From Escherichia phage vB_EcoM-101112UKE3-1, in the sequence record MZ234013.1: 64,000 nt of DNA; one strand, 5' to 3'. The first letter of the stretch is position 1. Each line of letters starts with the position of its first letter. The notes beneath the pieces were generated by a model. That model was not told the DNA's origin. It was given only the letters and a program-made list of their open reading frames with translations, and made no database searches. This document shows positions 22,612-44,171 of this stretch, one piece after another. The translations under genes were made by a program, and so were the position numbers.

Positions 22612-25122
<2,511 letters not shown>

Positions 25123-40202: not shown

Positions 40203-40776
40203 AAGATTTCTCCATTATACGTATAAGGTCGTTCATAAATGAATTAATGTCTGATTTTGCTATTATTTTTATTTGACGAAGTTTTTCATTTTCAAGAACA
40301 GCATCTTCATACGTATTAACAGCAGCAAGTGCTCCTTCATATTGAGGATATTTTCTAGCTTTATCACCTTTATCATACCAAACATATGGATTATCATCGT
40401 ATGATATTAAATTATAAAATTTTTCACCGTTCTCATTCACATGATATACTATTTGGTCTCCACCTACATTTTTGTATTTTTGTATAGATGCTTGATAAGC
40501 TGCTTCTTGTGAAGTAATCCATCCATAATACGGGTCATAATTATCATTACACATCAATAAAACCCAATACAACTGTGGATTTCCATATATAGTATTTGCT
40601 AATTCTTCCGGGCGTGGTGAACCTTTGATATAATAAGTACGTAAGCGGTATCCCGCAAGAGCGCGTTTAAAATAGTCTTTATAGTTTCTAAAAATATCTG
40701 TCATAGGAATAGTCGGCGCGTTTTTATTCACCGTTTTGGCCGCATATTCAATCGGATCAAAAAATGTAAAGAGCAT
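40186..40776 (-). CDS. 53: baseplate wedge protein gp53
   Basis: 196 aa, same as T4 gp53. Confidence 0.85.
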   Translation of the reverse strand: MLFTFFDPIEYAAKTVNKNAPTIPMTDIFRNYKDYFKRALAGYRLRTYYIKGSPRPEELANTIYGNPQLYWVLLMCNDNYDPYYGWITSQEAAYQASIQKYKNVGGDQIVYHVNENGEKFYNLISYDDNPYVWYDKGDKARKYPQYEGALAAVNTYEDAVLENEKLRQIKIIAKSDINSFMNDLIRIMEKSYGNDK

Positions 40777-40789
40777 GGGCCCTCCTGTT

Positions 40790-40812
40790 TATAAATATAT
40801 TATCTATTTATA
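40790..40812. promoter_or_regulatory. divergent late promoter boxes for gene 4 (plus) and gene 53 (minus)
   Basis: Plus-strand TATAAATA at 40790..40797; minus-strand TATAAATA at 40812..40805. Confidence 0.45.
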
Positions 40813-40823
40813 AGGAGAATCCA

Positions 40824-41276
40824 ATGGCATATTCTGGAAAATGGGTTCCTAAAAATATATCAAAGTATAGAGGTGACCCTAAAAAAATTACGTATAGATC
40901 AAATTGGGAAAAATTCTTTTTTGAATGGTTAGATAAAAATCCAGAAATTATTGCATGGGGTAGTGAAACAGCAGTAATTCCTTATTTTTGTAATGCAGAA
41001 GGGAAAAAACGTAGATACTTCATGGATATTTGGATGAAAGATTCTTCTGGACAAGAATTTTTTATTGAAATAAAACCTAAAAAAGAAACACAACCACCAG
41101 TTAAACCAGCACATCTAACAACCGCAGCGAAGAAAAGATTTATGAATGAAATTTATACATATTCTGTTAATACCGACAAATGGAAAGCAGCGCAAGCTTT
41201 AGCTGAAAAGCGTGGAATAAAATTTAGAATTCTGACAGAAGATGGATTACGAGCTCTTGGCTTTAAGGGGGCATAA
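40824..41276 (+). CDS. 4: head completion protein gp4
   Basis: 150 aa, same as T4 gp4. Confidence 0.85.
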
Positions 41277-42103
41277 TGGCTATTTTTCAAATAATTAATG
41301 AAAGCACTCCCCAAGTTCCAAAGGTTAAGCAATCATTAAACGAAAAGAAATGGATTCAGATAGGTCTTGAATATAAAAAGGCCAAAGCAAAAGGAATGAC
41401 AGGAAAGCAATTTGCTGAAGAAAGAGGAATCAAATACTCTACGTTTACTTCAGCAATGTCAAAATATGCTTCAGGAATTAAAACGGCTGAAAAGATTCAA
41501 AAGCTTGAATCAAAACCAATGAATAAACTCAATAAGCAAGAAAGACAACTGCTTATGATAAATTCATTCAGACAAACATTGCGCGATAAAATTCGTAATG
41601 AAGGTGCAGCAATTAATAATAAAACCAGAAAGTGGTTTGCTGAAACTATTAAGCAAGTAAAAGGACATAAGGTTGTTCGCCCGCAGCCGGGACGAATATA
41701 TGCTTTTGCTTATGATGCTAAACACAAGGAAACTCTTCCTTACTGGGATAAATTTCCTTTGATAATTTATCTTGGTTTAGGTAAACATAATTTAATGTAC
41801 GGATTAAACTTGCACTATATTCCACCTAAAGCTCGTCAGCAATTTCTAGAAGAGCTTTTAAAGCAATATTCAAATACACCTACTATTACTAATAAAACGA
41901 AATTAAAAATTGATTGGAGTCAAGTGAAAGGATTTAGGGGTGCAGACCAAATGATTAAGGCATATATACCTGGTAATATTATGGGTAGCCTTGTTGAAAT
42001 CGCCCCGAAAGACTGGGCGAACGTTGTGTTAATGCCACTCCAAAGCTTCTACTCCAAAGGAAAACGTTTCTCTGCAAACAAAGTTTGGAGCAATGTACGA
42101 TGA
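41276..42103 (+). CDS. 2: DNA end protector protein gp2
   Basis: 275 aa; T4 gp2 is 274 aa. Confidence 0.85.
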
Positions 42104-42759
42104 ATTATGAAAAAATTTATAATTTACTAATTGATAGGGCTCGCAATAGAGCCCTTATTGGATATAAAGAAAGACATCATATTATTCCGAAATGTTTAGG
42201 CGGTAGTAATGATGCTTCTAACTTGGTTGATTTAACTCCAGAAGAGCATTATGTTGCACATCAGCTATTAGTAAAAATACACCCAAATTCTTTAAAATTA
42301 TCTTATGCAGCCATAAAAATGACGGTTTCAACTAAATATGTTAGGAGAAATAATAAAGTTTATGGTTGGTTAAAAAGAAAACATGCAAATAATATTTCAA
42401 ATACACAAACTGGACGAAAATATTATAATAATGGTAAAAGATGTATAAAATTACATGATGGAGATATAATTCCTGAGGGATTTATTTTAGGAAGAGGATG
42501 GAGTCCGACACAAGGAACAACTCATTCTAGAAAAAATGACACATTTAAAAACAAAAAGCTTCAATCTGCTTTAGCTAATAAACGGTGGGAAAAAGAAAAG
42601 AAAATAATGTTAGATAACTTTGGAGTTAACACTATTGATGAAGCAAAGAAAATTGTTCTTGATTTTAAATCAACTTGTCATCCAAGATATTGGCGAAAGC
42701 CAACTTTAGAAAAATTTCCATTTATGACTTCTGCTCGTTTAAGAAGTCTAATAAATTAA
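42100..42759 (+). mobile_element. free-standing HNH homing endonuclease (219 aa) inserted between genes 2 and 3; paralog of the 13/14 insert
   Basis: [17 protein letters not shown]...ERHHIIPKCLGGSNDASNLVDLTPEEHYVAHQLLVKIHPNS parallels the 23384..24196 protein; ATGA overlap with gene 2 stop. Confidence 0.75.
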
Positions 42760-42865
42760 TTCTATTATCTTCCATTCTTTTCTGTTGTTTGTTCTAAATG
42801 GAATTGAATGGAAGGGACTTAGACCCATTATACCACCAACAGTTATAAAGCATTATGAGGAATAT

Positions 42866-43396
42866 ATGTCGCAAGCACTGCAACAAATTTTTAACCAAGC
42901 AAATACAACTAACTTTGTAGTATCAATACCACATAGTAATACTACATCTGCTTTTACTTTAAATGCTCAGTCAGTTCCTATTCCAGGAATTAGAATACCT
43001 GTTACTGATACCGTGACTGGGCCGTTTGGACTGGGCCGAGCACAACGTCCAGGTGCTACATTTGAGTACGATCCACTCATCGTGAGATTTATAGTTGATG
43101 AAGAACTTAAGTCATGGATAGGAATGTATGAATGGATGCTAGGAACTAGCAACTATCTTACAGGTGAAAATACTGCCCAAAAAACAGGTCCTGAATACAT
43201 TACGCTTTACATTTTAGATAATAGCAAAACTGAAATCGTGATGTCAATAAATTTTTATAAGCCTTGGGTTTCTGACCTATCTGAAGTAGAATTTAGCTAC
43301 ACAGAAGATTCAGACCCGGCTTTAGTATGTACAGCAACGATTCCTTATACGTATTTTCAAGTAGAAAAAGATGGAAAAATTATAGCGGAAGTTTAA
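42866..43396 (+). CDS. 3: tail tube terminator / sheath stabilizer gp3
   Basis: Internal ATG with gagga SD gives 176 aa as in T4 gp3. Confidence 0.8.
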   Translation: MSQALQQIFNQANTTNFVVSIPHSNTTSAFTLNAQSVPIPGIRIPVTDTVTGPFGLGRAQRPGATFEYDPLIVRFIVDEELKSWIGMYEWMLGTSNYLTGENTAQKTGPEYITLYILDNSKTEIVMSINFYKPWVSDLSEVEFSYTEDSDPALVCTATIPYTYFQVEKDGKIIAEV

Positions 43397-43445
43397 TGCT
43401 TCAGTTTCATGTGTTATAATCTTAACTAAATTTGAGGAGAAACAT

Positions 43446-44170
43446 ATGAAACTAATCTTTTTAAGCGGTGTAAAGCGTAGTGGAAAAGATACTACTGCTG
43501 ATTTTATCATGAGCAATTATTCTGCAGTTAAATACCAACTTGCTGGTCCTATTAAGGATGCATTGGCTTATGCATGGGGAGTATTTGCTGCAAATACTGA
43601 CTATCCTTGCTTAACTCGTAAAGAGTTTGAAGGAATTGACTATGATCGTGAGACTAATTTAAATCTAACTAAATTAGAAGTAATCACGATTATGGAACAA
43701 GCATTTTGCTATCTTAATGGTAAAAGCCCAATTAAAGGTGTGTTTGTTTTTGATGACGAAGGACAAGAATCAGTTAATTCCGTAGCATTTAACAAGATTA
43801 TTGACGTTATAAATAATATTGAAGATCAATGGTCAGTCCGTCGTCTGATGCAAGCCCTAGGTACGGATTTGATTGTTAATAACTTCGACCGCATGTACTG
43901 GGTAAAATTATTTGCTTTAGATTATCTTGATAAATTTAACTCAGGTTATGATTATTATATCGTTCCTGATACCCGTCAAGATCATGAAATGGATGCGGCT
44001 AGGGCGATGGGTGCTACAGTAATTCATGTAGTTCGTCCTGGTCAAAAATCCAATGATACACATATTACAGAAGCTGGATTGCCAATTCGTGATGGCGATT
44101 TAGTAATTACAAACGATGGTTCTCTTGAAGAACTTTTTTCTAAAATTAAAAATACACTAAAGGTACTATA

Positions 44171-44171
<1 letters not shown>
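43446..44171 (+). CDS. 1: dNMP kinase gp1
   Basis: 241 aa, same as T4 gp1; P-loop GVKRSGKDT. Confidence 0.9.

Follow-up and report, generated by a model that had tools for sequence, protein, structure and literature searches.

Introduction

In the mob genes of phage T4, a common HNH domain is joined to C-terminal regions that differ from gene to gene and presumably bind DNA (PMC2988022). Among them, mobE sits between nrdA and nrdB in the early/middle nrd region, encodes a protein of 141 aa and has its presumed target in the downstream gene, nrdB. Deletion of the HNH motif of MobE abolishes nicking as well as high-frequency inheritance (PMC2790892). Like several other T4 endonuclease genes, mobE is promoter-less (PMC2790892; PMC2988022), and an internal terminator located "27 nt downstream of the AUG" has been experimentally proven (PMC2790892). 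In phage RB32, two mob-like HNH genes were reported by Petrov et al. 2010 (PMC2993671).

Here we describe a gene of this kind in a 64,000-nucleotide stretch (the window) of Escherichia phage vB_EcoM-101112UKE3-1 (MZ234013.1). The gene lies between T4-type genes 2 and 3 and is referred to below as the 2/3 gene. It resembles mobE in several respects: it is probably promoter-less and read from the transcript of the upstream gene, its start codon overlaps the upstream stop, a hairpin lies ~30-36 nt into the coding region, and its presumed target is in a conserved neighbour gene with polymorphisms between carriers and non-carriers. The two genes also differ. The presumed target of the 2/3 gene is gene 2, on its upstream side, whereas that of mobE lies downstream; its 219-aa protein has a C-terminal module unrelated to that of MobE; it resides in a late structural operon rather than in the early/middle nrd region; and the U tract after its hairpin is weaker than in mobE. 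A further HNH gene in the window, between genes 13 and 14 (the 13/14 gene), encodes a protein that shares with the 2/3 protein, and with I-TevIII and I-HmuI, an HNH motif and a layout of nuclease plus DNA-binding domain, with binding putative in the window proteins. I-TevIII and I-HmuI are intron-encoded, whereas both window genes are free-standing.

Results

The window is a T4-like (Tequatrovirus) late-gene region. A total of 518 phage records match the 3-kb stretch around the 2/3 gene, mostly at 95-99% identity, and the best record match of the first 24 kb of the window reaches ~96.7% identity. The genes surrounding the locus are as follows.

40824-41276, + strand: gene 4 (T4-like late region)
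41276..42103, + strand: gene 2 (DNA end protector), the upstream host gene, its 3' end being the presumed target (annotation of near-identical phages)
42100..42759, + strand: free-standing Mob-family HNH endonuclease gene, 219 aa plus stop (ORF, BLASTP, PHROG, alignment)
42760-42865, + strand: intergenic spacer of 106 nt, the same in empty genomes (comparison with empty genomes)
42866..43396, + strand: gene 3 (tail completion/sheath stabiliser), the downstream neighbour (annotation of near-identical phages)
43446-44171, + strand: gene 1 (T4-like late region)

Genes 5 and 53, together with baseplate, neck and terminase genes, occupy the - strand of the window. The 2/3 gene is an intact ORF with its ATG at 42100 and its stop codon at 42757-42759, in agreement with the first-pass annotation, which had placed an HNH endonuclease at exactly these coordinates. 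The ORF list starts the gene at TTG 42085; because an MNY... N-terminus is common to all family members, we regard ATG 42100 as the true start. The gene stands free on the same strand as its neighbours, between complete genes 2 and 3 that are likewise intact in empty genomes. An intron-encoded arrangement, with the ORF inside a self-splicing group I intron, was rejected, as the insert sits past the end of gene 2 and inside no gene. The term "intron-like" in GenBank is a similarity name only.

Sequence similarity places the ORF in the T4 Mob family (MobA-E) as a free-standing gene for an HNH homing endonuclease. BLASTP matched the N-terminal domain of its protein to MobB (E 1e-29), MobE (2e-25), MobD (1e-21), MobC (8e-17) and the MobA fragment (7e-6). 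Among the T4 proteins, MobB gave the strongest match overall, at 45% identity across 126 aa, and MobE is 62% identical over 63 aa of the HNH domain. The 13/14 protein likewise matched all five, MobA again as a fragment, by way of its N-terminal domain. The endonuclease identity given by the first-pass annotation is corroborated both by the matches to MobB, MobD and MobE and by PHROG 655, "homing endonuclease", which matches the 2/3 protein (E 1.7e-57) as well as the 13/14 protein (E 2.7e-52). Residues H26, H27, N41, H50 and H54 are invariant across 33 aligned homologues. The Pfam models HNH_5 and HNH hit at 17.6 and 16.4 bits, under their curated thresholds of 27.5 and 21.4. The protein is organized as follows.

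Residues 1-~60: HNH nuclease core, H26 H27 ... N41 ... H50 ... H54 (alignment)
Residues ~60-132: linker and beta-hairpin region (YYNNG..IKL...PEGF.GR), common to many homologues (alignment)
Residues ~133-219: helical C-terminal module, restricted to the lineage found after gene 2 (alignment, AlphaFold2)

An AlphaFold2 model built from the 33-sequence alignment (mean pLDDT 89.7) showed an N-terminal core of helix-strand-strand-helix, beta-hairpins at residues 107-118 and a confidently modelled four-helix C-terminal module at residues 152-218. The top PDB matches of this model in Foldseek were HNH domains at non-significant values (E >= 0.56), so that the HNH assignment derives from Mob-family homology and not from the fold search. 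The protein had no sequence match among solved structures, and the C-terminal module had no significant structural match. By BLASTP, residues ~133-219 have no counterpart in T4 MobA-E, and they are kept only in homologues located after gene 2. Among 2861 database homologues, full-length alignment was confined to about two dozen clusters, while the remainder share only the first 44-68% of the protein. This pattern fits a target-specific C-terminal module, which we consider a putative DNA-binding region.

As the first-pass annotation had suggested, we compared the 2/3 junction across genomes. The full gene was present in 36 of the 518 matching records (~7%), at 98.3-99.7% identity; these represent ~32 distinct phages, four records being RefSeq/GenBank duplicates. 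The other ~480 records, T4 included, have a precise empty site, as shown in T4, fFiEco06, SG1 and BYEP01, in which AAAGTCTGGTCAAATATCTAA is directly followed by TTCTATTATC. The carrier instead reads AAAGTTTGGAGCAATGTACGATGAATTATG, then the gene ending in AATAAATTAA, then TTCTATTATC. The cassette thus recodes the end of gene 2 (SNI-stop to SNVR-stop) and stops at the original stop-codon position, for a net gain of 659 bp. Decayed copies were also found. CT01 has kept the cassette edges with an internal deletion of ~486 bp that removes the HNH motif, and FL23 and FL44 have a 1-nt deletion in the gene, annotated in FL23 as a split ORF (two ORFs). An exact-pattern scan of the junction in IMG/VR returned only two contigs, both with empty sites.

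The gene itself is already known, as an ordinary, annotated selfish gene in RB32 and many other genomes. The RB32 copy (DQ904452/NC_008515) has 99.5% nucleotide identity to the window gene over all 660 nt; it is the same gene at the same site and differs in nothing material. RB32/RB33 annotation calls it a "putative site-specific intron-like DNA endonuclease" or "homing endonuclease". A literature search for experimental work on the gene 2/3 endonuclease returned none, only papers that count or annotate it.

Orthologues with 66-70% nucleotide identity lie directly 3' of gene 2 across Tevenvirinae, in X20 and Gravdalen (Winklervirus), VR25 and P479 (Gaprivervirus), NM4.3 (Moonvirus), Kosakonia phage 305 (Kanagawavirus) and C6 (Dhakavirus; the annotated start is late and the full ORF is present). 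With the genus of the window, at least six genera are represented. Full-length orthologue proteins are 59-63% identical to the window copy, similar to the neighbouring proteins (gp4 62-68%, gp2 69-71%, gp3 52-54%, gp1 53-54%). With dN/dS values of 0.07-0.27, sequence divergence indicates that the orthologues in these six genera are under purifying selection. Homologues of lower identity (46-53%), from Serratia phages SP1 and 4S and from a Logan contig, likewise lie 3' of the gp2 gene. In the Logan contig, the gene downstream of the endonuclease homologue is gp4-like rather than gene 3. Since homologues follow the gp2 gene even where gene 3 is not downstream, the endonuclease lineage is associated with gene 2.

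Comparison of carriers with T4-type empty genomes revealed two clusters of substitutions, both within the final 64 nt of gene 2, as listed below (all from genome comparison).

42040..42055, + strand: 9 substitutions over 16 nt of gene 2, giving LQSFYS in carriers where T4-type empties have LQQFVS
42056..42084, + strand: 29-nt gene 2 block with no difference between carriers and empties
42085..42099, + strand: recoded last codons of gene 2 in carriers (...VWSNVR-stop against ...VWSNI-stop); left cassette edge

Across nine genomes, these two clusters were the only flanking sites separating carriers from T4-type empties, other variable sites being mosaic. Relative to the empty genome fFiEco06, the window has a single difference in the downstream 1744 nt, and upstream the 42040-42055 cluster and the recoded gene end. 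The carrier Elenatom and the empty fFiEco06 have the same flanking haplotype and, over gene 2, the spacer and gene 3, differ at 42037, at 42784, in the two gene 2 clusters and by the 659-bp insert. These differences bound the exchanged unit between 41871 and ~42784, and the near-isogenic pair indicates recent gain or loss of the 2/3 gene. As the two genomes are set apart by the insert and a short tract beside it, they lend indirect support to biased inheritance with co-conversion of the flanks.

Target and immunity region probably both fall in these last 64 nt of gene 2. On the model of MobE (PMC2790892), the block at 42056-42084 is a candidate binding site for the putative DNA-binding module of the endonuclease. 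The 42040-42055 cluster is a candidate cleavage or immunity region. When the last 123 nt of carrier-type gene 2 were used as query, 52 records matched at >=95% identity and 451 at 80-95%. About 15 empty genomes (e.g. SG1 and BYEP01) combine a carrier-type 42040-42055 cluster with an empty-type gene end, which eliminates the cluster as a strict carrier marker. Because it is not strictly tied to the insert, its role in immunity is uncertain. The SG1/BYEP01-type alleles could be resistant empty sites, or could reflect loss by recombination within the 29-nt block.

The following expression signals were found in and upstream of the gene.

40790..40797, + strand: T4 late-promoter consensus TATAAATA before gene 4, the only one upstream of the endonuclease gene
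42087..42090, + strand: GGAG lying 9 nt ahead of the ATG, possibly a Shine-Dalgarno sequence, present in carriers only, with empties reading TGGTCAAATATCTAA (sequence reading)
42136..42155, + strand: RNA hairpin at codons 13-19, 7-bp stem AGGGCUC/GAGCCCU with a 6-nt loop (folding, covariation)

No late promoter was found on the + strand between 40797 and the endonuclease gene. Because the sole upstream consensus precedes gene 4, the 2/3 gene looks promoter-less and is probably a passenger on the gene 4-gene 2 late transcript. A scan of 40700-43500 for sigma-70 promoters and terminators gave no more hits than shuffled sequences and found no terminator in the gene. The start codon of the endonuclease lies on the stop of gene 2 as an ATGA overlap (42100..42103, + strand), which suggests translational coupling or re-initiation, and the GGAG would be a putative Shine-Dalgarno sequence by its position. 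The same 4-nt overlap occurs in four of the six annotated orthologues (X20, VR25, P479 and Gravdalen), the annotated overlap with gene 2 being 1 nt in NM4.3 and Kosakonia phage 305.

The hairpin starts 36 nt after the A of the AUG (local fold z = -3.8). Each of the eight orthologues examined has it, and 96% of the cells are paired. At two of its pairs, both partners are exchanged by way of synonymous third positions (G-C/C-G/U-A and U-A/C-G). In a sample of only about 4-5 independent lineages, the covariation score was 0.352, compared with 0.179 in shuffles, none of 500 of which reached 0.352, and at most 0.102 in slid controls. The tail that follows, UUAUUGGA, has 4 U in 8, a poor U tract, and the terminator scan made no call there. 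The proven internal terminator of mobE folds at equivalent codons; no hairpin was found at the equivalent codons of T4 mobB, mobC and mobD. Compensatory change of this kind makes a regulatory role likely, with termination as one candidate mode, although the hairpin may act otherwise.

The other HNH gene of the window is located as follows.

23384..24196, - strand: Mob-family HNH endonuclease gene of 270 aa at the 13/14 junction (ORF, BLASTP)

Its ATG overlaps the gene 13 stop as ATGA, as that of the 2/3 gene does at gene 2, and its 3' end falls where gene 13 stops in T4 (TAATATG). The gene 14 side of the insert is 99.5% identical to T4, whereas identity drops to 89.7% over the last 204 nt of gene 13, most of all beside the insert. 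A 9-bp hairpin at 24140-24161 occupies the same codons as that of the 2/3 gene. The C-terminus of the protein contains a cysteine/histidine-rich, zinc-finger-like region that resembles the I-TevIII C-terminus (E 9e-7). The insert is apparently carried by 46 of 507 records (>=80% query coverage), T6 included. Since ESh30, fPS-2 and CJY920 are the only phages in both carrier lists, the two elements have spread independently.

The first-pass annotation had described the 2/3 gene as a second paralogue of the 13/14 insert, ~18 kb away, alike over the N-terminal part of the protein, and had inferred that one family had colonised two conserved structural-gene junctions. The likeness is real: the quoted motif string is correct, and BLASTP of the two proteins gave 52/116 identities (45%, E 6e-26), confined to residues 1-111, which is far beyond both chance and the generic HNH motif. 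The start codons are 17.9 kb apart, on opposite strands, and both junctions lie between late structural genes. The C-terminal halves, however, are unrelated. Set against the identities to the T4 Mobs (2/3 and 13/14 protein, respectively: MobB 45% and 50%, MobD 53% and 47%, MobE 62% and 43%), the mutual identity of 45-48%, N-terminal only, puts the pair no nearer to one another than to that family. "Paralogous" therefore holds at the level of the family and fails as a duplication within the genome. Given these identities and the lack of relation between the C-terminal halves, the comparison identifies the two genes as independent invasions by different family members.

Discussion

Taken together, we consider it very likely that the 2/3 ORF is a free-standing Mob (HNH) homing endonuclease gene of a lineage that keeps to the 3' end of gene 2. 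By analogy with MobE, the gene would be carried along on the gene 4 and gene 2 transcript made from the 40790 late promoter and translated at a low level through re-initiation at the ATGA overlap, and the hairpin 36 nt into the coding region may damp expression further. In a mixed infection, the C-terminal module would bind the conserved gene 2 block of an insert-less phage, and we infer that the N-terminal HNH domain would be enzymatically active, nicking or cutting near this block. Recombinational repair off the carrier genome would then copy the endonuclease gene together with at most the last ~64-230 nt of gene 2, the carrier presumably being protected by its substitutions at 42040-42055 and/or 42085-42099.

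The gene might instead be a relic that is no longer mobile, an inactive passenger kept by drift or hitch-hiking. The decayed copies in CT01 (internal deletion) and in FL23 and FL44 (1-nt deletion), the low carrier frequency of ~7% of records, and the fact that activity was never shown for several T4 mob genes (Table 1, PMC2988022) all speak for this reading. We nevertheless regard it as unlikely, because the window gene is complete and retains every catalytic residue, the Tequatrovirus copies in 36 records remain 98.3-99.7% identical, full length has been kept in six genera at dN/dS of 0.07-0.27, and the near-isogenic carrier/empty pair indicates recent gain or loss. Purifying selection could also signify domestication for another phage function, such as exclusion of competitor genomes or work with gp2 on DNA ends late in infection, and the long residence beside gene 2, with divergence like that of the flanking genes, and late co-transcription with head-completion genes are consistent with this. 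The site is empty, however, in ~93% of close and fully viable relatives, including T4, T2 and T6-type genomes, nothing in the endonuclease sequence points to a gp2 function, and marker exclusion is a by-product of homing anyway (PMC2988022). Domestication is accordingly still less probable than a relic, and a mobile Mob-type endonuclease tied to gene 2 remains the reading that we prefer.

A last alternative concerns the origin of the pair, in which the two HNH genes would have arisen by duplication within the genome and would act as dispersed repeats promoting rearrangement. Their common N-terminal domain and their presence 17.9 kb apart in one genome prompt this idea, and the first-pass annotation had indeed listed them as potential recombination substrates. 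At the sequence level, duplication is refuted, and we assign it almost no probability: each protein is as close or closer to a T4 Mob than to the other, the C-terminal halves are unrelated, and most carriers have just one gene, with ESh30, fPS-2 and CJY920 alone in both lists. The best nucleotide alignment between the genes spans 49 nt at 77.6%, and the longest exact word common to both is 13 nt and out of register, so that the genes would be poor substrates for homologous recombination. Moreover, they are oppositely oriented, so that recombination between them would flip the intervening stretch instead of removing it. In genome scanning, then, a pair of such genes in a single phage does not by itself imply duplication or a risk of recombination.

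Three points may be new here: the lineage has stayed with gene 2 from genus to genus, polymorphisms mark a candidate target and immunity region, and the mobE-like hairpin covaries. We offer, as a tentative proposal that could well prove wrong, that the hairpin, kept up by compensatory synonymous changes, is a conserved cis-regulatory feature of a Mob subset (mobE, 2/3 and 13/14) that throttles expression in essential late operons, that the 2/3 lineage has tracked the C-terminal codons of gp2 through at least six genera, and that the SG1/BYEP01 alleles are resistant empty sites. The locus has modest value as a clean natural system for Mob-type endonucleases, whose mechanism remains poorly known, offering near-isogenic genomes with and without the gene, a candidate target that is short and lies in a conserved gene, alleles that may be resistant, decayed copies and a covarying hairpin. 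Past correct annotation, the gene is otherwise of little import, being one more ordinary case of the homing endonucleases that T-even phages carry. Some GenBank records name it "mobB" or "similar to MobB". T4 MobB, encoded between alpha-gt and alpha-gt.2, has another C-terminal half and another genomic site, and mobB has no 5' hairpin, unlike the 2/3 gene; given these three differences, the 2/3 gene is not an orthologue of mobB.

The endonuclease gene between genes 13 and 14

Divergence from T4 at the 13/14 junction is one-sided and lies with the upstream gene. Gene 13 shares 89.7% identity with T4 over its final 204 nt (24197-24400, minus strand), with 21 differences that are most dense beside the insert, versus 99.5% identity at the start of gene 14 (23200-23386, minus strand). 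The 2/3 junction shows this pattern too. Two features were located within the 13/14 endonuclease gene:

24140-24161, minus strand: hairpin with a 9-bp stem and a 4-nt loop, at codons ~13-19
23402-23623, minus strand: C-terminal ~75 aa of the endonuclease, with CPHC...H..C repeats and similarity to I-TevIII

The hairpin is identical in position to the hairpin of the 2/3 gene and to the T4 mobE terminator; it differs from both in sequence, and the tail 3' of it is A-rich rather than U-rich. The last ~75 aa of the enzyme resemble the C-terminal part of the I-TevIII ORF of T4, which is defective (34% identity, E 9e-7). This suggests that an intron-encoded HNH enzyme and a Mob gene that is free-standing share a zinc-finger-type DNA-binding module.

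Empty and decayed alleles at the 2/3 junction

Salmonella phage SG1 (record stretch L009, local positions 901-1021) and BYEP01 (L010, 901-1020) have empty sites, yet their gene 2 contains the carrier-type QSFYS substitution cluster alongside a T4-type gene end. The same combination of empty site, carrier-type cluster and T4-type end was observed in ~15 records. Such alleles may be resistant empty alleles or else footprints of endonuclease loss. Decay of the endonuclease gene was observed in Shigella phage CT01, where an internal deletion of ~486 bp has left a remnant ORF; it joins GATAGGG to TTAGCAC at a point slightly within the hairpin's 5' arm:

L003 (CT01 stretch, local coordinates) 1601-1774: remnant ORF, 174 nt

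Gene 2 neighborhoods and flanking elements

On the distant, T4-like Logan contig SRR13090265_42399 (L019, 92-2221), the order is gp2, endonuclease and a gp4-like gene, in contrast to gp4, gp2, endonuclease and gp3 in the window; the endonuclease remains joined to gene 2 although the neighborhood is rearranged. Escherichia phage P479 (L014, 1-352) carries an additional annotated 'homing endonuclease' (648-nt CDS) directly upstream of gene 2 as well as an endonuclease gene downstream, so that gene 2 of this phage has an endonuclease gene on either side.

The gene 2-gene 3 spacer contains a 9-nt inverted repeat:

42769-42777 and 42806-42814: CTTCCATTC ... GAATGGAAG

Because empty genomes such as T4 also have this repeat, it is part of the host spacer and not of the insert.

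Across the whole window, the late-promoter consensus TATAAATA was matched 26 times versus ~10 expected by chance, including a back-to-back pair spanning 40790-40812 in the divergent gene 53/gene 4 intergenic region:

40790-40797, plus strand: late-promoter consensus
40805-40812, minus strand: late-promoter consensus
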